Shown: positions 1,561 through 14,251, counted from the first letter of the stretch. The stretch is 14,743 nt of DNA from a virus (IMGVR_UViG_2974607751_000001:99533-114275); one strand, 5' to 3'. The notes: generated by a model from the letters alone, not told the origin. Made by a program: numbers and translations.

Positions 1561-1593
1561 TAGAAAGTGAAGTGAGAAACACTGCTATTTAAG

Positions 1594-1675
1594 TTATCCA
1601 CAGGTTTATTAACAGCACGATTTGACTTGACAAAATCCTAGCGATTTTGAGGCGTTTTCAACAGACTTATTAACA
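1594..1675 (+). promoter_or_regulatory. DnaA-box cluster, copy A
   Basis: TTATCCACA (1594, perfect), TTATTAACA (1606), TTTTCAACA (1655), TTATTAACA (1667); two pairs, each 12 bp apart. Confidence 0.6.
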
Positions 1676-1683
1676 GGTTATTC

Positions 1684-1703
1684 TACTGTATATTTATACA
1701 GTA
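1684..1703. promoter_or_regulatory. LexA (SOS) box
   Basis: TACTGTATATTTATACAGTA: one mismatch from the consensus TACTGTATATATATACAGTA. Confidence 0.7.
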
Positions 1704-1814
1704 TTCCTGCGTAGTGAATAACTCTAATATAGCTCTAAAACGCTCTGTAACGCATTCTAACGCGTTTATTTTTGGAGGAGGTATTTTAATAAGGGTAAAT
1801 TTGAGGAAGGCCAG

Positions 1815-1842
1815 AAAAAGCGGGGCCGATAGTTGCGCCCCG
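1815..1842 (-). terminator. Rho-independent terminator ending the minus-strand pre-early operon
   Basis: Minus strand reads cggggc-gcaactatcg-gccccg-cttttt, immediately after the 1849 stop codon. Confidence 0.75.
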
Positions 1843-1848
1843 TTATTA

Positions 1849-2043
1849 TTAGTCTGGTAGTCGATGTGTGATCTTTTCGCTTTCGCCGTAGGAGTCTACC
1901 AAATGTTGATAGTATCCATCGTTATCATAGATCACTTTGTCATAATCGCCGCGCTCGACTAATTGCCGATTTTCTAGCGTATCAGGCACAAAGAAAGTAT
2001 CAACGGTAACAGTAGTTTTAGTTACAACAATTTTATCACTCAT
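1849..2043 (-). CDS. Pre-early hypothetical protein (64 aa)
   Basis: ATG start, last gene of a co-directional string, followed by a terminator. Confidence 0.8.
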   Translation of the reverse strand: MSDKIVVTKTTVTVDTFFVPDTLENRQLVERGDYDKVIYDNDGYYQHLVDSYGESEKITHRLPD

Positions 2044-2058
2044 AGTAACGCCCCGTTA

Positions 2059-2154
2059 TTAATAGATGTATTGTTGAAAATAGCGGCGGATATTGTCGCC
2101 ACCGTTGGGATCATTAGCAGGCTTAATATTACCAACGAAAATATATAGTCTCAT
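2059..2154 (-). CDS. Small hypothetical protein (31 aa, MRLYIFVGNIKPANDPNGGDNIRRYFQQYIY)
   Basis: GGAG 10 nt upstream; its ATG overlaps the upstream TGA (ATGA coupling). Below the ORF-track length cutoff. Confidence 0.55.
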   Translation of the reverse strand: MRLYIFVGNIKPANDPNGGDNIRRYFQQYIY

Positions 2155-2288
2155 AGTGCCATCGCTCCTAAAATGAGAATGATTATTATTACCATTACAA
2201 GCCCGTTACTAAATCGTAAACGCTGGGAATGTTTCCCAGCGGTATTATTAGATTTATGGCTTTGCGTTTTTCGCCACCAGCTATTCAT
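2151..2288 (-). CDS. Small C-terminally membrane-anchored protein (45 aa)
   Basis: MNSWWRKTQSHKSNNTAGKHSQRLRFSNGLVMVIIIILILGAMAL; ATGA overlaps with both neighbours; hydrophobic C-terminus. Confidence 0.6.
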   Translation of the reverse strand: MNSWWRKTQSHKSNNTAGKHSQRLRFSNGLVMVIIIILILGAMAL

Positions 2289-2629
2289 TGTGCAATTTTT
2301 CGAAACGCTGTTTCGATACTTTCAGCGGTTGATTGAATATATGCGCCTTTCATAATCAGGCGCTCTGTGCATACTTTGCGGAAAATGTCAATAAATTCAT
2401 TTTCATTTTCTGCTACTAATGGCTCACCCATAACCTGTACATCACATGCGCCAAAAGTAAGAAACTGGAAGGCAAGCTCGCGAGCAACAACGGCATTAAT
2501 TTTATAGTGTGCTTTGCCTTCATAGATATTAACCACACCTTTATAAACTGGTGAAAGCTGATTTAAATAGTTTGCTAATAATGCCGGACGGCAATTAGTA
2601 ACAAAACGATTGCCCTCATAAATTACCAT
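2285..2629 (-). CDS. Pre-early hypothetical protein (114 aa)
   Basis: GGGAG RBS upstream of ATG; co-directional with the operon. Confidence 0.85.
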   Translation of the reverse strand: MVIYEGNRFVTNCRPALLANYLNQLSPVYKGVVNIYEGKAHYKINAVVARELAFQFLTFGACDVQVMGEPLVAENENEFIDIFRKVCTERLIMKGAYIQSTAESIETAFRKIAQ

Positions 2630-2744
2630 TGTGACATCTCCCAGATAGTTGCGCCGATAAATATTAGCTGACTAATGATAATTAACACAAAACCGATTGA
2701 AGGCAGGACGCCCCAATATTGAAACGCCCTTTTAATTTGTTGAA

Positions 2745-2957
2745 TCATAATACCCCACGAAACGCAGCGTAAAAAGTGGCAAAGTGTTTAACCGTTTCGG
2801 CTACCAAATTTCCGCGCTTGTCAAATTTCTTTTCTGTAACACGGAAAGCGTTTTTGTTGCGTGCTACATATTCGATTTTACAATCGTGACGCTCAAACGT
2901 GTTAACATCCACCAGCTTAAAACCTTTAGAACGGGCAAGGGAAACATTCTTTAACAT
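2745..2957 (-). CDS. Pre-early hypothetical protein (70 aa, basic)
   Basis: AGGAG RBS, ATG start, operon context. Confidence 0.85.
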   Translation of the reverse strand: MLKNVSLARSKGFKLVDVNTFERHDCKIEYVARNKNAFRVTEKKFDKRGNLVAETVKHFATFYAAFRGVL

Positions 2958-3011
2958 TTGCTTAACTCCTAGTTAGGGAATGAGGGGGCGAAAGTAACGC
3001 CCCGTTATTAA

Positions 3012-3239
3012 TTACATTAAAACAATTTTAGCCGCTTGCTTTTTGGTGCAATGGTTAGCTTTCAATTCATCTAGCAAAAATCCGGCGGTTTGCTGGTCAA
3101 TCTTATCATTATCATAAAGCTCCTGAATAGTAACATAAGTTTTACCGATCCCAAATTCAGAAACCATAACGTTGACAATAGCGGGAACGGATACCCATTC
3201 CATACCGTTAAAAATTGCAGAAGATGATGAATGTACCAT
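3012..3239 (-). CDS. Pre-early hypothetical protein (75 aa)
   Basis: AGGAGG RBS, ATG start, operon context. Confidence 0.85.
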   Translation of the reverse strand: MVHSSSSAIFNGMEWVSVPAIVNVMVSEFGIGKTYVTIQELYDNDKIDQQTAGFLLDELKANHCTKKQAAKIVLM

Positions 3240-3304
3240 TTTAACGCCTCCTAGAAATCAGGGAAAATTTTCAATCCACCGTTTCGGTGTAAAGGCATTA
3301 TAAC

Positions 3305-3333
3305 AAAAAAGGCCGCCATAATAGGCGACCTTT
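3305..3333 (-). terminator. Rho-independent terminator abutting an extended -10 promoter (TGTTATAAT, 3297-3305)
   Basis: Minus strand reads aaaggtcgcc-tattat-ggcggcctttttt, immediately followed by gttataat. Confidence 0.65.
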
Positions 3334-3346
3334 ACAAAACTTTACA

Positions 3347-3892
3347 TTACGCTATTTCGATAACTTCAATACTATGTACTTCTCTTAAAGCCTGAATGAG
3401 AACGTTGTATTCTTCCCATTCTTTCCCCTCGGGAATATAAACAAGCTGTTTTAATCGGCTTGCATATATTAACGCCTTGTTATTATTTAATCCTACGCCA
3501 CCGTTTTCAATAATCCATTTCATAACGGTAATAATAGGATCGCCGCCGTTTACATAAGTACCGGACTTACTTAATTGATATTGAAACACCGTTCCGCAAA
3601 CGCTGCTATTTTCTTCATAACTACAGCTTACATTGCAATCCTCGCAATGTTCCTCATCCAGATGATCCCCGCATTCAGGGCAAACGTAATAGCCGTCACT
3701 GCCAAAACTGGAGGCGTTTTCCATTGCGCAATCGTGCGCAAATTGATCAATATCCGTATTGGCATAGATCAAATGCTCATCCGTCCAGCTTTCACCACAC
3801 GTGCCCGTTTCACATTTGACAATAGCGATAATTTCGGTTAGTGATCTTTCGCCGTCGATCATTAAACCATACTTGCAAGGTACTTTAGACAT
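3347..3892 (-). CDS. Pre-early hypothetical protein (181 aa) with a CxxC-x8-CxxC zinc-ribbon-like motif
   Basis: AGGAG RBS; contains CPECGDHLDEEHCEDC. Confidence 0.85.
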   Translation of the reverse strand: MSKVPCKYGLMIDGERSLTEIIAIVKCETGTCGESWTDEHLIYANTDIDQFAHDCAMENASSFGSDGYYVCPECGDHLDEEHCEDCNVSCSYEENSSVCGTVFQYQLSKSGTYVNGGDPIITVMKWIIENGGVGLNNNKALIYASRLKQLVYIPEGKEWEEYNVLIQALREVHSIEVIEIA

Positions 3893-3946
3893 TAATTAGT
3901 CTCCTAACTAAAAGGGAAAGCGGGGAATAATCCCCGCTAGTAATTA

Positions 3947-4303
3947 TTATTCTGTTTCGGCGCTTTGGGTAAAGGTAGAAATGTCAATACCTTTTACCAT
4001 TTCATCGATCATTTCAGCAATATTGAAACTCTGTACCATTTCCAACATTGCCGCTTCCATTGCCGCGCCTGCTACCGCTTTTGCTTTCGCATTAGTCGGG
4101 GCGTACTGGTCAACCGCTACACTCAGTAGGTTAGCGATCACTACACGACCAATCGGCGTATCAATATAACCTTTAATCATAAACGGCGCTTTTTTCGCCG
4201 CTACTTTTGTGATTTGAGTCAGTGCAATTTTACCCGCTTCCAGTTTAGCAGCGTTTACAACGGCGGATTTGTTAGCGGCAACAATAGAAGATACTTTAGA
4301 CAT
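3947..4303 (-). CDS. Probable nested in-frame 118-aa product (MSKVSSIVAANK...)
   Basis: Internal AAAGGA RBS before the ATG at 4303, and an internal TTGACA-18-TAAACT promoter with its -35 at 4381-4386. Confidence 0.5.
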   Translation of the reverse strand: MSKVSSIVAANKSAVVNAAKLEAGKIALTQITKVAAKKAPFMIKGYIDTPIGRVVIANLLSVAVDQYAPTNAKAKAVAGAAMEAAMLEMVQSFNIAEMIDEMVKGIDISTFTQSAETE

Positions 4304-4948
4304 AATGTTATTTCCTTTATTTTCAATAGTTTGCGCATTTGCGCTTGAAGTTTGAGAGTTTACAGCCTGTTTTGTTACATTGTCAAGCGGTTTTAATGTA
4401 AATCCAGCGTTTGCAACGTTCGATTCATTCCCATACGCTAAATAATCGTTAGGAATCAACATATTACCGCTAGCGCGTTCAAAACACAATACACCAGTTG
4501 TTGCGCATACTTCATCGTCTGCGCGTCGATAGCTAGAAGACAACTTACCCCAAATGCCAGATAGTAACTCTTCAATACTATCACTCTGGACACTAATTTT
4601 TAAAGCTGTTATCTGCTCTTTTTCTTGCACGTTATATAATCGCGCAATGTAACTATCATGATCGCCACTATAACCAACAATGATAAAATCTACATCGCTA
4701 CCACGTTGATTGCGGAAAATGTTATAATCACGGTTGTAAATTACTAGCGCCCTTGTAGCGTCGAGTAATTTCGTAAACTCATCAACTGAATAATGAGTAT
4801 CATTATTGTCTAAGATTTGATCATGAATCTTTTCAACCATACTAGCGGTATGTTGCAAACTTGCCGCACTATTACCATCTAGCAGATTGCGCAAACTACC
4901 TTTAATAATGGTTGCGTTTGCTGGTACTGCAATTCTAGTAAAAGACAT
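3947..4948 (-). CDS. Pre-early hypothetical protein (333 aa), first gene of the minus-strand operon
   Basis: Long ORF with GAGGGG RBS and an upstream promoter; Ala-rich helical C-terminal domain after a low-complexity linker. Confidence 0.9.
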   Translation of the reverse strand: MSFTRIAVPANATIIKGSLRNLLDGNSAASLQHTASMVEKIHDQILDNNDTHYSVDEFTKLLDATRALVIYNRDYNIFRNQRGSDVDFIIVGYSGDHDSYIARLYNVQEKEQITALKISVQSDSIEELLSGIWGKLSSSYRRADDEVCATTGVLCFERASGNMLIPNDYLAYGNESNVANAGFTLKPLDNVTKQAVNSQTSSANAQTIENKGNNIMSKVSSIVAANKSAVVNAAKLEAGKIALTQITKVAAKKAPFMIKGYIDTPIGRVVIANLLSVAVDQYAPTNAKAKAVAGAAMEAAMLEMVQSFNIAEMIDEMVKGIDISTFTQSAETE

Positions 4949-4981
4949 TTTGTTGTCCCCCCCTCGTTAATCGGTAGGTGA

Positions 4982-5011
4982 ATGATATAGATATTTGTTC
5001 GCTAGGGGCAA
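4982..5011 (-). promoter_or_regulatory. sigma70 promoter of the minus-strand pre-early operon
   Basis: TTGCCC-18-TATCAT with a T-rich UP-like tract upstream. Confidence 0.55.
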
Positions 5012-5197
5012 GAAAAAAGAAAAGGTTTTTTATTCCTTGCCTAACGCCTGTTTTTGTGCTAATCGCGCGTTTTCTATTTCTAGCTCTCTGTAAGCGTACA
5101 CAAGGCTTTATTATAATAAGGGTAGTAGTGAGAAAACCGCTTAGAATGCGTTTTAGGCCGCTTAAATTTGATTGCGGTTGTTACTGCTACCCTTTTA

Positions 5198-5217
5198 CCC
5201 TGTATATTTATACAGTA
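5198..5217. promoter_or_regulatory. LexA (SOS) box, copy B
   Basis: CCCTGTATATTTATACAGTA; the CTG-N10-CAG core is identical to that at 1686-1701. Confidence 0.7.
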
Positions 5218-5225
5218 GGATAACC

Positions 5226-5307
5226 TGTATATAAGTCTGTGGATAAGTCGCCAAATCGCCGCCTATTGCGTCAAGTTATTTTGTGCTGTGGATAACTTTG
5301 TGAATAA
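5226..5307 (-). promoter_or_regulatory. DnaA-box cluster, copy B
   Basis: On the minus strand: TTATTCACA (5299-5307), TTATCCACA (5287-5295), TTATCCACA (5238-5246), TTATATACA (5226-5234). Three match TTWTNCACA. Confidence 0.7.
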
Positions 5308-5873
5308 CCTAAACGATAGTGGTTCTCACTTAGCCGATAGTTTCTTATAGTTATTATTTTTCTTTAATTTATAAGTATATTATATAATATGAAATAGTTA
5401 GTTGGCTAATAGGTTTTTAGATTACTAATAGTCTGCTAACTGTTCCGGACGTTACAATCCACCAGCGTGATTATCATCCTAGCGATTGTTAGTCCGCTAA
5501 CCAATCAACGCACGTCTAAACTTATTTGTCAATGAAAAATAACAGCAGAAAATACTTTTTTGAAAAATCAAGTGGATAACTTATTAAATTTCATTTTTGC
5601 TTTTTGTATAAGTTATTAACAGGGTCTAAAACGCTCTGTAAGCGATTCTAAGCGCCTCAAAGGAAAAGATAGGCAATCATAAGGGGTACACCGAGAAAAC
5701 CTCACCACGAGGATTTTAGATTTTGTCAAGTAGGGCAAAGCAAATATAAATGAAAAAATTACTTGCTAAAATGGTTGTTTTAGTGTTATTCGCGCGCCCG
5801 TTTCATTAAATTTAGTGCGCCGCTGGACGTTTGCGGGTAGTGGTTTTCTTTACTTTTCTTTACAAAAATAAGG

Positions 5874-5902: not shown

Positions 5903-5968
5903 TTATCTCGTAGGACGGCAAGACGGAAACGAAAGGCCAGACTACAACGGCGGGGAAGTTTACCGCTA

Positions 5969-5981
5969 TGCTCTTTAAAAA
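5969..5981 (+). promoter_or_regulatory. rrn-type boxA (NusB/NusE) element
   Basis: TGCTCTTTAAAAA in the leader downstream of the 5874 promoter. Confidence 0.7.
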
Positions 5982-6041
5982 CTAGGGAACATCTTAAAGC
6001 CTATCGGCGGTAAACTTAGATATTATAAGGAATCGACGATA

Positions 6042-6260
6042 ATGATCAAATCAAAAAACGCTTTAGTGATTAGTGCGAAACCTGCTAGCGCATTAGATAG
6101 CAGAACAAAAAATTTGTTGACAGTAGCGCAACGATCTGTAAAATACAGATTCAAGCAATACAAGAAAGGCAAGCAGCAAGGTCTGGAAATGGTGTGGCGT
6201 AATATAATGATTGATTTATATAACTCACATCAAATCGAAAAAAGTTTAAAAAACGCTTGA
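6042..6260 (+). CDS. Pre-early hypothetical protein (72 aa, basic)
   Basis: AAGGA RBS, ATG start, first gene after the promoter. Confidence 0.8.
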   Translation: MIKSKNALVISAKPASALDSRTKNLLTVAQRSVKYRFKQYKKGKQQGLEMVWRNIMIDLYNSHQIEKSLKNA

Positions 6261-6313: not shown

Positions 6314-6424
6314 TTTGGATAACGGTAATGTTTAGGCTAACTCCTAGCGGATTATAATCTAATAGCGTTTCAAAGTATCGAGGCGCTATTGTGGAATAAT
6401 CCCCAATAAACCGGAGTATTAAAA

Positions 6425-6676
6425 ATGCAAAACGTTATTACCGCGCCGAAAGTAGGTCAATCTGTTTTCATTCCTTTTGTAACTAAAACTGATGAATTAA
6501 CCGGAAAAGCCGAACGTATCAAAGGTGCGGCGCTTGATCCTTTCGATAAAATCGAAGCGGTTTACGCGGAAACGGAACGTAGCAACAACGGCAAGCCGAT
6601 TTATACCGTCCGTGTTAAATCTGGCGACGTTGTAAAGGTCATTCAGAAAGATGATAAATGGCAAGCCATAGCATAA
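6425..6676 (+). CDS. Conserved T5-family pre-early hypothetical protein (83 aa)
   Basis: GGAG RBS; MQNVITAPKVGQSVFIPFV start recalled from T5-like phages; lies immediately upstream of A2. Confidence 0.85.
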   Translation: MQNVITAPKVGQSVFIPFVTKTDELTGKAERIKGAALDPFDKIEAVYAETERSNNGKPIYTVRVKSGDVVKVIQKDDKWQAIA

Positions 6677-6921
6677 ATTAATGCGCCTTACATATCATGC
6701 TTAGTTAGGCAATAAAGATAACTCGAAACATTCCTAGCGTGAACGGAATAATAAAGAATTTAATATTCTAGCTTTAAATAGTGTTAACTGAATAAGCTGT
6801 ATTTCTTCATTAAGGCAAGGCGTTTAACTCGTATTCGACTTTAATTAGAAATTAACAGCTTATTAGGATTAACATTAGTTAATCATAATCCCTTAATTAA
6901 TAATTGAATGGAGTATTTATT

Positions 6922-7338
6922 ATGTCTAACGTTAAAACCGAAAAAACCGCAAAATTCTCTTGGAACGAAGAAAACACCGAAAAGGCTGTTTCTATGTATT
7001 CTGAAATGGTCGCTAAAAGCGGAATTGAATTTGCTAATAGTGACGGCTTAAAAGAGATTGCCGCCGCCGTTGGCGCTGCAAGTCCGGTGTCTGTACGTTC
7101 TAAACTGACAAGCGCAAAAGCGTACCAGAAAAGCGATAAACCGCGTAAAGTTGGCGGCGGGTCTAGTGTCCGTAAAGCTCACTATGTGCGCGTCATTGCT
7201 AAACACGCCATTGATAGCGGCATTGTAAAAGACGCTGACGATCTGGCAAGTCTGGAAAGTGCAAAACTGGAAACGCTGGACGCCGTAGCGCAATTGTTAG
7301 GCGTAGCGGAGGAAGTGAAACAGGCCGCAGGTGAATAA
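6922..7338 (+). CDS. A2: A2 protein (DNA-binding, needed for second-step transfer), 138 aa
   Basis: GGAG RBS before the ATG at 6922 (the track's TTG at 6904 is unlikely); FSWNEENT...SVRSKLTSAKAYQK signature; size and position upstream of A1. Confidence 0.9.
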   Translation: MSNVKTEKTAKFSWNEENTEKAVSMYSEMVAKSGIEFANSDGLKEIAAAVGAASPVSVRSKLTSAKAYQKSDKPRKVGGGSSVRKAHYVRVIAKHAIDSGIVKDADDLASLESAKLETLDAVAQLLGVAEEVKQAAGE

Positions 7339-7732: not shown

Positions 7733-9400
7733 ATGAATATTTCCGCAGAAAAACAAGCTCAAATTCTGAAAATGGCTGCTGACTTTAATTTCTATGGTAA
7801 GCGTTTACGCGCTACTAAATTGGAAGTTTGCGACGATATTTCAAAAGCTGTTTATGATACGCCGAAACATTCAACCGCAATCTGCGATTGGCTGGAAGCA
7901 AATAAGCCAGCGAAACCGAAAGCGGCGAAAGCTGAAAAGGCGATTAAAAATGATGATCGCCCCGAAGCGGCGGGAATTGTTTCTAGTACCGTTGAACAAT
8001 GGGAAGTTAAATCCGGTCGCCGTTTTATTCTAACGTCGATTCAAAATAATACTTTCCCGCATAAAAACTTTTTAGCGGCGCTTGTTAATTACGCTGAATA
8101 TTGCGGCGCTGAATTGCTAATCAGTAAATTCATTTATAATAAAAATGGATTCCAGAACGGCGACGGCAGCAAAGAAAAAATTAAATATGATTCAGCGTTT
8201 GATAAATATATCTGCGATAAAAACGTATTTTTAAATAATCGCCGCTTTGCTTTCATGTCTGAAATTAACGTATTACCAACGGCAGATTATCCGCTTTCAG
8301 GATTCGCAGAAACCGCCACGGCTTTAAATATTGACGGCCTCGCAATTGGTGCGGCAAAAATTACCGCTGAAAGTGTGCCAGCGTTAAAAGGTGAAATTGT
8401 GCGCCGTATGTATTCAACCGGAACGGCGACACTTAAAAACTACATTCAGCAAAAAGCAGGACAAAAAGCCGAGGCTTTACATAATTTCGGCGCTTTGCTG
8501 GTAGAATTTGACGACGACGGCGAATTTTTCGTTCGCCAGCTTGAAACAATGGACGAAAGCGGAATGTTCTATGATCTGAATATTTGCGCTACCGCTACCG
8601 GATGTTATGAAACATCGGGCCATGTTCTAGGCTTGCAATATGGCGATATTCACGCCGAAAAATTAGATGATGATTGCGCCGTTGCGTCATGGGCTAGTGA
8701 AAACAGCTTGCTTGATATTCTCAAGCCTAAATATCAGTTTATTCATGATGTGCATGATTTTACATCCCGCAATCATCATAACCGCGCTAGTGGTGTATTC
8801 CTTGCTAAACAGTACGCCGCAGGACGTGACAAGGTTTTAGATGATCTTATCGATACTGGACGCGTTTTAGAGTCTATGGAGCGTGATTTCTCTCAAACAA
8901 TCATTGTGGAATCTAACCATGATTTAGCATTATCCCGCTGGCTTGATGATCGTAACGCTAACATTAAGGACGATCCCGCAAACGCCGAGCTATATCACAG
9001 CCTAAACGCTGCGATTTACGCCGCAATTGCAAAACAAGATGATACCTTTAACGTGCTAGATTACGCCTTGCGTAGTGTCGCAGGTTGCGAATTTAACGCT
9101 ATTTTCCTGACGACAGACCAATCATTCAAAATCGCTGGCATTGAGTGCGGCGTACATGGTCACAATGGCATTAACGGCAGTCGGGGCAATCCTAAGCAGT
9201 TTAAAAAGTTGGGACGCCTTAACACTGGTCACACTCACACGGCTAGCATTTACGGCGGCGTTTATACTGCTGGCGTGGCGGGGTCGCTTGATATGGGTTA
9301 CAACGTGGGCGCGTCAAGCTGGACGCAAACGCATTTAATTACCTATGCAAACGGGCAACGTACTTTGATTGACTTCAAAAACGGTAAATTCTTTGCATAA
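7733..9400 (+). CDS. A1: A1 protein (host DNA degradation and second-step transfer; metallophosphoesterase-like nuclease), 555 aa
   Basis: AGGAG RBS; calcineurin-like motifs GDIH, HDVHD, SNHD, HGH and GHTH; size and synteny as in T5. Confidence 0.93.
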   Translation: MNISAEKQAQILKMAADFNFYGKRLRATKLEVCDDISKAVYDTPKHSTAICDWLEANKPAKPKAAKAEKAIKNDDRPEAAGIVSSTVEQWEVKSGRRFILTSIQNNTFPHKNFLAALVNYAEYCGAELLISKFIYNKNGFQNGDGSKEKIKYDSAFDKYICDKNVFLNNRRFAFMSEINVLPTADYPLSGFAETATALNIDGLAIGAAKITAESVPALKGEIVRRMYSTGTATLKNYIQQKAGQKAEALHNFGALLVEFDDDGEFFVRQLETMDESGMFYDLNICATATGCYETSGHVLGLQYGDIHAEKLDDDCAVASWASENSLLDILKPKYQFIHDVHDFTSRNHHNRASGVFLAKQYAAGRDKVLDDLIDTGRVLESMERDFSQTIIVESNHDLALSRWLDDRNANIKDDPANAELYHSLNAAIYAAIAKQDDTFNVLDYALRSVAGCEFNAIFLTTDQSFKIAGIECGVHGHNGINGSRGNPKQFKKLGRLNTGHTHTASIYGGVYTAGVAGSLDMGYNVGASSWTQTHLITYANGQRTLIDFKNGKFFA

Positions 9401-10246: not shown

Positions 10247-10981
10247 ATGAATAAAGTTAACATGAATATTACCCGCACTTTCCCGCATATTTCCCGCGTT
10301 ATGATTTGGGATTTAGACGGAACGATTATAAATTCTTTCCATCGTGTAGCGCCTTGCTTTGATAACGCTGGCAATCTGGATTTAGTTAAGTATTCCCGCG
10401 AAGCCTGCAAACATGATTTAATTATGCAAGATTCTTTATTGCCATTGGTTGAATATATGCGCCAATGTATGAATGATGCAAATACATTAAATATTATTTG
10501 TACCGCGCGCCTAATGTCTAAAAGCGATTATTTTTATTTACGCAAACAAGGCTTGCGCGGGCGCGGTAATAGTAATATTCGCGTATTTTCCCGCGATACA
10601 TTACACAAATACTTTGAAGCGGATAAGGTTAGCGAAATATACCACAGCAAAGACGCTGTATATAAATCTTATTACTTTGAACTGTTTAAACAGCTATATC
10701 CTAATGCTGATTTTACAATGATTGATGATCATAAAGGTGTATTATCGGCGGCGGCAAGTGCTGGATTTAAAACGCTGGACGCTCAAGCCGTTAATGATAT
10801 CCTATCAATCGGGGTAACATTGATTGGTGAAACCTTTATCGATGAATCGTTAGACGAGGATAATGATTATCAATTCCTAGCCGATAGATTAAAAATGTGT
10901 TGGGAAGGTATGACCGAGGAAGAACGCGCGGAATATAGTACCACACCGCAACAATACATTGAGAAATTAAAAGTTGCCTAA
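10247..10981 (+). CDS. dmp: Deoxynucleoside-5'-monophosphatase (HAD family), 244 aa
   Basis: HAD motif I WDLDGT, ICTAR and IDDH motifs; last gene of the pre-early operon as in T5. Confidence 0.93.
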   Translation: MNKVNMNITRTFPHISRVMIWDLDGTIINSFHRVAPCFDNAGNLDLVKYSREACKHDLIMQDSLLPLVEYMRQCMNDANTLNIICTARLMSKSDYFYLRKQGLRGRGNSNIRVFSRDTLHKYFEADKVSEIYHSKDAVYKSYYFELFKQLYPNADFTMIDDHKGVLSAAASAGFKTLDAQAVNDILSIGVTLIGETFIDESLDEDNDYQFLADRLKMCWEGMTEEERAEYSTTPQQYIEKLKVA

Positions 10982-12469: not shown

Positions 12470-14251
12470 ATGAGTTTTTTCGCAGGAAAATTTAGTGATG
12501 GTAAAACTGTATTATCTCTAAACGCTGCTAATGGTGGTGATATAAATCAGCACTACTCTCCAAATACTAATAGTATTTTCCACTCAGATATGCCATTTGT
12601 CCTAGTTGATGGGACTTATGAGGCTGCTCTAGGTGATGCAGGTAATGGGTACTTTGTTACTCAGATGCCATGGGATATTATAAATATTAAATCCAATGAT
12701 CCTGGTAGAGTTATATTAACTGCTATTGAGATAAACGGTACTCATAGGGGTTTCCTTAATGGTACCCAATCTCAGGTTGGTCAGTTCTTAACATTCTTCG
12801 AAGATCAACCACGTGCTGGTGCTGAACTAGCTATAACATCTGCTTTTGCAATCGGTGATAGTTTAGCTCATGGTACTTATATCTATAATGGTGGTCTTGG
12901 TCATGAGGAATCTATTGCTAGGCAGGGAACTGGTGGTACTTTACTACAATCTTCCGGTTTCCAGATCTTTAGACCTGGTGGTGTTTCCGCAGGTGAAGCT
13001 ATTTCCAGAGCCTGGGGATTAATGGGCTTTCCTACTGGTGTTTCTACTGTTCCTATAGATGGTGGTAACGCCGATTATTGGGAACCTAACTGGCAAGCGC
13101 CTGTTGGTTCTGCTGGTAGAGGCCATGATTGGTTTTACGTTTGTAGTTCTAATATTCGTGGCTTCGCAGGTAAAAAAGGCGTACTACCGGATAACGTAAA
13201 CGTTATTTATCAATCTCCTGCGTATCCAGAAAAAATATATGTTTGTAGAGGTTCTACTTCTAATATGGCTGCTCAGTCTGCTAGAAAGGTGTATGTACAG
13301 GACTGGTATAACGTTACGCCAACTAAAGTTATTTGGTACGTGCTAAATCTGCGCTATTCTAATGGTAGTATGGGAGTTTCTGGTAATCCATTTACTGGTT
13401 CAGATATCTTAATATCACCATCTAACTTTACTATTAAAGGTGTTAGTCTACCAAATACAGGCTATAAATTTATTAACCAGAATGCTTTCGGAAACTTAGG
13501 CTATCGCCCTGATATGGAATATGTTGGTAATAACGCTGCGTATACCGGAGTTTTTGGTGATAATACTGCACGATGTGAATTCATCGGCTCTAGTAATGGT
13601 GGGTTATGGTCGCCCGTTAACTATGGGGGTGCAGCTTCTCAAATTAGCTTATATAAATTTGGTGTAGGTAAACAATGGTATGTAGATACTAATACTAACT
13701 CCATTGGTAATGAACATGGATCTGTGTGGAGTCCTAGTACTGTACCTCTCAGATTATTCCCAGGCAACGTTGCAAGTACTTATGTAGGGGACGATATAAC
13801 TCCATCCTACCCTGGTGCTGGTGACTTCTACACACCTTTGGCCACAGTTTGGTTGGGATTACCAAATGCTCACTCTACTGTTATATTAACTACTGAAGTT
13901 ATTATGGGTAATCTTAATACTGCTGGTATGCCTGTACGTACTTATGGTGGTAGTGCTTGGCAGGTACAAGGCAGACGTCAACAAAGTTATACAGCTGGTG
14001 ATGGTGTATTCCATCAGATTCTTACTCTGCCACCTGGCTATCTAGTACCATATCACAGCACAACTTCCTATAGTTATACCCAAACGTGGGCTAGTAGACC
14101 TGATGAGATGGCTTTTCGTAGAAATGGGTATATTTATACAGTAAAAAACCTTGGTAATGGTAATGTTGAGTTGGGTGTTATTATTCATGCTGCAGAAGCA
14201 GCTGCTATCTTCTTACCAAGACTACGTGTAACAGTTCAACGCCTAACCTAA
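12470..14251 (+). CDS. oad: Receptor-binding protein (pb5/Oad/Hrs family), 593 aa; probably the BtuB-binding class
   Basis: MSFFAGK N-terminus, IFHSDM motif and ...VQRLT C-terminus typical of pb5; located between llp and terS. Confidence 0.92.

Follow-up and report, generated by a model that had tools for sequence, protein, structure and literature searches.

LexA operator-type palindromes beside DnaA-type boxes in the inverted repeats that flank the pre-early cassette of a T5-like bacteriophage

How the injection of bacteriophage T5 DNA stops and restarts is a question that has stood for about 60 years. The closest described counterpart of the element considered here belongs to that system: in T5 and 24 relatives a 131-bp repeat, IRD'-spacer-IRC', lies at the injection stop and is matched ~3 kb further left by an inverted counterpart, IRC-spacer-IRD, and the T5-type repeats contain eight DnaA or DnaA-like boxes arranged in pairs 3 bp apart (Davison, bioRxiv 10.1101/866236). 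IRD'-spacer-IRC' is also called Repeat Region 3, the injection stop signal, IRC-spacer-IRD is Repeat Region 2, and the palindrome is palindrome D (see also Davison 2015). The historical passages of the preprint date the first box observations to 1987 (Heusterspreute) and take the repeat names back to the genome paper of 2005 (Wang). The palindrome is named there only 'palD', and the terms 'LexA' and 'SOS' occur 0 times in the text; a 2023 paper (PMC10644984) describes experimental study of these repeat sites as lacking, and a 2026 paper names only repeats, palindromes and DnaA boxes for them. Here we analyze the corresponding pair of repeats in IMGVR_UViG_2974607751_000001:99533-114275 (hereafter the window), the last 14,743 bases of a T5-like phage genome of 114,275 bases in total, which is reversed relative to the T5 map. 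The element is real, non-random and already described in T5, and our analysis adds to it a LexA operator and a history of inversion. We consider it quite possible, if short of probable, that the two arms are composite landing pads for host LexA and DnaA that bound the accessory pre-early cassette.

The repeat pair is readily recovered from the window. Positions 1571-1701 align to the reverse complement of 5200-5330 without gaps and with 94 of 131 identities, exactly as an earlier reading of the sequence (the first-pass annotation) had counted, and a repeat search finds the same pair. Both copies align to those of T5 in the same 131-bp register, copy 1 without gaps, with the T5 homologue of copy 2 located at NC_005859 6098-6228, and both were found in 36 of 36 close IMG/VR relatives. 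Judged by these alignments, the pair in the window is another phage's copy of the published 131-bp inverted repeats of T5, and the belief of the first-pass annotation that a second inverted copy had escaped description has to be given up, because both copies and their eight DnaA boxes are in Davison's account (bioRxiv 10.1101/866236). The window pair shares with IRD'-spacer-IRC' and IRC-spacer-IRD the 131-bp register, the place in the terminal repeat, the flanking of a variable cassette beside A2-A1-dmp and the paired boxes 3 bp apart, and it differs from them in nothing structural. Both copies belong to the terminal-repeat pre-early region, copy 1 being next to the injection-stop arrays and copy 2 next to the A2-A1-dmp operon (Table 1). 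The content of the cassette between them is highly variable, and the window as a whole matches more than 500 phage records, chiefly from Salmonella, Escherichia and Klebsiella phages.

Each copy carries at its inner end a palindrome of the form CTGT-N8-ACAG with an AT-rich centre, close to TACTGTATATATATACAGTA and matching CTGTATATATATACAG at 15 of 16 positions. The 114-kb genome holds four CTGT-N8-ACAG sites (1.6 expected), and two of the four are the repeat palindromes, a concentration that chance would not produce. A search for the exact copy-1 20-mer in one representative genome per prokaryote species (596 Gb), where about one chance match is expected, returned at least 120 genomic occurrences, and among the matches listed the genomes are nearly all those of Beta- and Gammaproteobacteria, groups that use this box type. 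Neighbouring genes were defined by taking the first open reading frame (ORF) that starts within 300 bp on either side of the 20-mer, clustering these ORFs and naming the clusters. An SOS-type gene start lies within that distance at 71 of the 120 places among the matches listed, the neighbours being UmuD (20), ImuA (19), PA0069 radical SAM (15), RecA (7), DnaE2 (6), DinI (2) and TIGR03915/UdgX (2). Since the exact 20-mer stands beside SOS genes in many bacteria, the phage carries a sequence that bacteria use as an SOS operator. The LexA box proposed in the first-pass annotation therefore goes beyond a resemblance to a consensus, its exact 20-mer being the operator next to umuD, imuA, recA, dnaE2 and dinI and also the most conserved part of the repeat. 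LexA would very likely bind this palindrome in vitro. A literature search, which did not extend to the Davison 2015 review, found no paper linking the repeats of T5 or Tequintavirus with LexA, and a LexA operator in T5-type repeats is apparently unpublished. One further match to the inner palindrome (13/14, at 14127-14143) lies inside a 593-amino-acid ORF (12470-14251), is without the CTGT half-site and is probably due to chance.

Comparison with known LexA sites shows both how closely the phage palindromes follow the bacterial pattern and where they depart from it. The SOS boxes of Beta- and Gammaproteobacteria (umuDC, recA, imuA-imuB-dnaE2, dinI) have the same CTGT-N8-ACAG form, the same AT-rich centre and, in many genomes, the identical 20-mer. 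The phage copies, in contrast, lie in non-coding DNA of a strictly lytic phage, overlap no promoter, and form an inverted pair 3.5 kb apart in which each member is at a fixed distance from DnaA-type boxes. Mobile elements with a host LexA site are familiar from the CTXphi rstA promoter, coliphage 186 tum and Bacillus GIL01, but there the box lies over a promoter and ties induction to the SOS response, whereas T5-like phages are virulent.

Conservation of the repeats centres on the same block. The LexA box is nearly invariant in 53 unique sequences, and in a deep alignment of 12 sequences, including T5, two Sugarlandvirus phages, My1 and L043, the majority-base frequency is 0.97 for GGTTATYCTA, 0.92 for the LexA core and 0.89 for box 4, compared with 0.67 for the inner flank and 0.64 for the spacer. 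The LexA palindrome together with the adjacent GGTTATCC is the best-conserved block of the repeat across T5-type, Sugarlandvirus and Myunavirus phages and the Proteus phages Stubb and PM135. In these last two, whose A1 is 44% identical, the whole layout is kept, and the centre of the box differs while CTGT and ACAG remain intact. Only one of 15 distinct substitution types seen in the box hits CTG/CAG (binomial p=0.009). Between the two copies, identity is 92% in site columns and 70% in other columns (Fisher p=0.002), and recent gene conversion across the whole repeat is ruled out as the source of this inter-copy identity, because orthologous copies are 85-98% identical and the two copies of one genome only 74-81%. 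Among close orthologues the boxes of copy 2 are better kept than its spacer (entropy 0.389 for the spacer and 0.213 for the boxes), whereas the spacer of copy 1 is as conserved as its boxes (0.142 vs 0.177). The proposal that identity concentrates in the boxes while the spacers drift is thus borne out between the copies, for copy 2 and in the deep comparisons, and fails for copy 1 among close relatives, where boxes are no better conserved than spacer.

The palindrome could instead be the site of a phage protein, with A2, the pre-early DNA-binding protein that is required along with A1 for injection to restart, as one candidate, or of a host protein other than LexA, with the inner TGTATAWWTATACA as its core and the likeness to a LexA operator incidental. 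We regard this as rather unlikely. Conservation of nearly all 16 positions in T5-type phages goes beyond what LexA needs, and phages of Vibrio and Pectobacterium, as well as L043, retain without change a variant of the palindrome that begins with A, adjacent to a CTAAAACGC-type motif; the repeat-associated copies, however, preferentially keep CTG/CAG and tolerate changes (CTGG, CCAG, CTGTAC) that, to our knowledge, natural SOS boxes also carry, and the Proteus phages alter the centre of the palindrome but not its CTGT/ACAG ends. LexA would in any case bind an exact SOS operator sequence, and a site acting during DNA entry cannot depend on a protein that has not yet been made. A2 itself is encoded 1.6 kb away, and its predicted structure (predicted local distance difference test, pLDDT, 81; predicted template modelling score, pTM, 0.47) consists of two helical domains, the N-terminal one a helical bundle, with a low-confidence basic linker at residues ~70-80. 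A structural search with this model gave weak helix-turn-helix-like matches and none that was significant in the PDB, a sequence profile found no solved relative, and the model neither supports nor excludes a role for A2 at the palindrome. No LexA-type domain was found by Pfam in ten pre-early proteins, which speaks against the A2 proposal and led us to reject a phage-encoded LexA-like binder.

The second component of each arm is a set of four TTWT-N-[C/A/T]ACA 9-mers arranged as two pairs. These pairs, with their start-to-start spacing of 12 bp, are present in both copies as the first-pass annotation described, and their clustering is far beyond chance: the genome holds 12 strict DnaA boxes (13.5 expected), and four of the 12 fall within the 262 bp of the repeat, as do eight of 44 DnaA-type boxes when one position is relaxed. 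The strict form TTWTNCACA fits four of the eight boxes, and the other four have A or T at position 6. Among relatives the boxes vary at positions 3 and 5, where DnaA tolerates change. The arrangement recalls datA, DARS and oriC in that a short stretch holds several DnaA-type 9-mers with a fixed spacing, but it differs from them in having half of its boxes off-consensus and in lacking an AT-rich unwinding element within the repeat; the origins of T5 have been argued to map to the middle of the genome (Davison, bioRxiv 10.1101/866236).

Davison's model could account for these boxes unchanged, with membrane-bound DnaA on the eight boxes arresting the DNA and an A1/A2 restriction-like activity cleaving the palindromes to free the second step, and with no part for LexA. 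We think this quite improbable in its unmodified form. The model and its comparative box data are published, and the strong clustering of the boxes and the confinement of their variation to DnaA-tolerated positions agree with it; half of the boxes are nevertheless non-consensus, the best-conserved block is the palindrome plus GGTTATCC rather than the boxes, the identity of the palindrome with an SOS operator is left unexplained, and experimental study of the sites is, as noted above, lacking (PMC10644984).

A model in which host LexA and DnaA both occupy the arms would accommodate the two kinds of site together. Each arm would offer two DnaA-type box pairs with a LexA operator at a fixed distance on its inner end, and LexA dimers and DnaA would occupy both arms on entry, before any phage protein is made. 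The bound proteins would set up a nucleoprotein boundary at each side of the cassette; the arm next to the injection-stop arrays could contribute to holding or pausing the entering DNA and the pair of arms could insulate the cassette. First-step transfer is established to stop when protein synthesis is blocked (recounted by Davison, bioRxiv 10.1101/866236), and because the stop works without protein synthesis, a host rather than a phage factor would be expected to act there. We infer LexA and DnaA occupancy, and any effect on injection or transcription, from the sites themselves. A real role for LexA in pausing, insulation or timing is doubtful, ranging from unlikely to at best a modest prospect. 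A more specific version would have LexA, together with DnaA, function on the inner repeat ends within the nucleoprotein complex of the T5 first step, where the presence of LexA or its RecA-driven cleavage tunes the pause, pre-early expression or second-step release; this we think improbable, and if it were true, a strictly lytic phage would read the SOS state of its host via operators that control no promoter. For the long-standing question of the injection stop, a conserved operator-grade LexA site joined to DnaA-type boxes names a second concrete host factor.

Several observations weigh against joint occupancy by LexA and DnaA as the explanation for the arms. The whole arm is, on the alignments, constrained beyond the named sites, because the spacer of copy 1 is as conserved as the boxes among close orthologues. 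The palindrome of the Vibrio phages (River4, L049) has A in place of the critical first C, and My1 and L043 keep extra A-first palindrome copies that abut a CTAAAACGC-type motif, so that some members of the family maintain a version to which LexA would be expected to bind weakly. ACAA replaces ACAG in four of 26 copy-2 variants, and position 6 is off-consensus in half of the 'DnaA' boxes. A promoter scan of the window found no promoter-like site over either LexA box. T5 is not known to plate or grow less well on recA or lexA mutants, which would argue against an essential LexA-dependent step, and for this reason we judge LexA cleavage unlikely to be an obligatory trigger of second-step release. 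Of the other functions proposed in the first-pass annotation, the repeats might serve as an origin, protect the DNA from A1 or sense the state of the host. Titration of LexA at the first step looks implausible, since a cell contains roughly a thousand LexA molecules and two sites on the entering DNA cannot act as a sink for such a pool.

The surroundings of the palindromes also bear on how LexA could act. The left copy of T5 has annotated promoters at 5938-6012 and 6411-6489 and its palindrome at 6213-6228, and the nearest promoter-like site in the window, the counterpart of the second of these promoters, is similarly removed from the LexA box of copy 2 (Table 1); copy 1 lies beyond the terminator-like hairpin of the cassette. 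With no overlapping promoter and the nearest one ~190 bp away, classical operator-style repression is unlikely, and we set aside a classical operator over a promoter as an explanation for the palindromes. The first-pass annotation had also assigned a Fur-like box to the outer block AGTGAGAAACACT, and this assignment falls away: the best matches in the repeat to the Fur consensus GATAATGATAATCATTATC, a 9-1-9 palindrome, reach 9/19 in copy 1 and 12/19 in copy 2, more than 300 genome positions reach 12/19, and a Fur box in the repeat is rejected, the matches being at background level. Much better Fur-consensus matches than that of the outer block occur in the four-unit tandem repeats at 1428-1560, where seven overlapping matches of 13-14/19 fall in 130 bp (~46 expected per 114 kb).

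Beyond their binding-site content, the arms mark the limits of a segment that has changed orientation during the evolution of these phages. Homologues of DUF7566, of a 181-amino-acid ORF and of a 64-amino-acid ORF were found by tblastn between the repeats of Sugarlandvirus, of My1 (Myunavirus) and of L043, where they lie on the A1 strand and in reverse order, whereas in T5-type and Proteus phages the cassette lies on the opposite strand. The copy-2 inner flank of Sugarlandvirus is 80% identical to the copy-1 inner flank of the window and only 64% identical to the copy-2 flank of the window. In Davison's account, other sequences with the opposite reading direction have taken the place of this region; on sequence grounds, the Type 2/3 cassette is instead homologous to it and inverted. 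A tree of A1 leaves four lineages unresolved, and the data require at least one inversion, with two on the best tree. An inversion site, among the functions the first-pass annotation had suggested for the repeats, is thereby supported on an evolutionary scale, the cassette being inverted in Sugarlandvirus and Myunavirus relative to T5-type phages. Because the arms are inverted repeats, recombination between them would turn the cassette round, and rare homologous recombination is the simplest account of the inversion.

This history differs from that of programmed inversion systems. As in Mu G/Gin and P1 C/Cin, a block of genes is bounded by inverted repeats and found in both orientations across genomes; here, however, Pfam and PHROGs searches of 11 window ORFs, five of them in the cassette, identified no recombinase family, and with it no invertase gene, and orientation is fixed within lineages, with all 36 close relatives sharing one. 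Logan contigs contained no strand-changing joints and the source run gave one contig in one orientation, although contigs cannot show minor forms. The T5-type cassette is best seen as a product of rare homologous recombination and not as a programmed switch of the Gin/Hin/Cin type. The inverted cassette shows that the repeats are recombination boundaries of the most variable, host-takeover part of the genome, which bears on the shuffling of accessory genes in T5-like phages used in therapy and biocontrol.

Two observations on the palindromes concern their behaviour as DNA. Every one of the 53 unique sequences, like the deep set, has either ATTT or AAAT as the 4-nt centre, with no intermediate (1690-1697, 5204-5211). 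The centre changes from one form to the other on backgrounds that are otherwise identical, the combinations of copy 1 with copy 2 being (AA,AA) in 16 cases, (TT,AA) in eight and (AA,TT) in two; this looks like either repeated hairpin-loop inversion or two old alleles shuffled by recombination. In one sequencing run, X3, a 3,322-nt Logan contig corresponds exactly to the cassette and both begins and ends with the same 30-mer, made up of the palindrome and 12 nt from the inner flank of copy 1, and a neighbouring contig of 6,230 nt ends in that same palindrome-containing 30-mer (1686-1715, 5200-5217). Through these shared ends the assembly graph closes the cassette on itself at one palindrome. 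A circle or a tandem duplication could produce this closure, as could an artefact, and depth gives no sign of duplication.

Such behaviour could mean that the palindromes or repeats serve as DNA structure, that is, as hairpin or cruciform recombination points at which the cassette inverts, duplicates or is exchanged, with the identity of the copies kept by recombination. We consider this unlikely as an explanation for the arms. The inversion of the cassette between lineages with breakpoints inside the repeats, its highly variable content and the spacer variants that copy 1 of one lineage shares mosaically with copy 2 of another all fit such a role, as do the flip of the centre without intermediate, which is typical of hairpin-loop inversion, and the closure of the X3 contig through one palindrome. 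On the other hand, the count of only one or two inversions across the whole family, a uniform orientation in all 36 close relatives, the within-genome divergence that excludes recent homogenization (74-81% identity, against 85-98% for orthologues) and the absence of a recombinase gene from the ORFs searched all count against it. Arms of 8-9 bp that are AT-rich make a weak hairpin, and structure alone leaves the exact SOS operator sequence unexplained. The features of the arms are listed with their neighbours in Table 1.

Table 1. Repeat arms, candidate binding sites and neighbouring features, in window coordinates
Feature	Position	Strand	Remarks
Inverted-repeat copy 1	1571-1701	plus	Corresponds to T5 IRD'-spacer-IRC'; beside injection-stop arrays
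Inverted-repeat copy 2	5200-5330	minus	Corresponds to T5 IRC-spacer-IRD; between divergent pre-early operons
LexA operator-type palindrome, copy 1	1684-1703		Core 15/16; 19/20 to the 20-nt SOS consensus
LexA operator-type palindrome, copy 2	5198-5217		Core 15/16; cassette-side flank GG, not TA (minus strand, copy-1-aligned orientation)
DnaA-type pair 1, copy 1	1594-1614	plus	TTATCCACA strict consensus, TTATTAACA not; 12 bp start-to-start
DnaA-type pair 2, copy 1	1655-1675	plus	TTTTCAACA and TTATTAACA, both off-consensus at position 6; near-invariant GGTTATYC follows
DnaA-type pair 2, copy 2	5226-5246	minus	TTATCCACA strict, TTATATACA not
DnaA-type pair 1, copy 2	5287-5307	minus	TTATTCACA and TTATCCACA, both strict
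Outer block AGTGAGAAACACT, small AGTG/CACT palindrome	1571-1583	plus	Twin at 5318-5330; invariant among copy-1 orthologues
CTTGAC(A/G), mid-spacer of both copies	1626-1632	plus	-35-like, without a -10 partner (promoter scan)
Second conserved block	1734-1764	plus	~33 bp inside the LexA box; three ~10-bp units ending AACGC
Promoter-like site for the cassette	4982-5011	minus	Counterpart of T5 promoter 6411-6489; ~190 bp from LexA box
Injection-stop repeat arrays	770-1578 (about)		
Accessory pre-early cassette between the repeats	1849-4948	minus	Six small ORFs; DUF7566 at 3947-4948
A2	6922-7338	plus	Plus-strand operon
A1	7733-9400	plus	Plus-strand operon
dmp	10247-10981	plus	Plus-strand operon

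Further conserved elements accompany the arms. The mid-spacer CTTGAC is kept in both copies and across genera. A weaker similarity between the copies runs inward from the repeats to the second conserved block (1734-1767 and 5134-5163), whose motif of about 30 bp (CTAAAACGC..TGTAACGC..TCTAACGC) occurs three times in the window, at 1734-1764, inverted at 5134-5163 and direct at 5625-5651. Conservation of this motif of AACGC units extends to Vibrio phage River4, and My1, L043 and the Vibrio and Proteus phages have a LexA-box-type palindrome immediately adjoining it. Copy 2 of Sugarlandvirus (L040, L042 and L037, all Klebsiella phages) is without the outer AGTGAGAA block and the first box pair. 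In the A2-A1-dmp operon, the start of A2 is likely the ATG at 6922 rather than the TTG at 6904. Within and at the edge of the cassette, a GC-rich hairpin with a common tail (GCCCCGTTATTA, plus strand) follows several genes, at 1817-1848, 2030-2068, 2979-3017 and 3466-3487, and may terminate the minus-strand genes as a module that moves together with gene cassettes.

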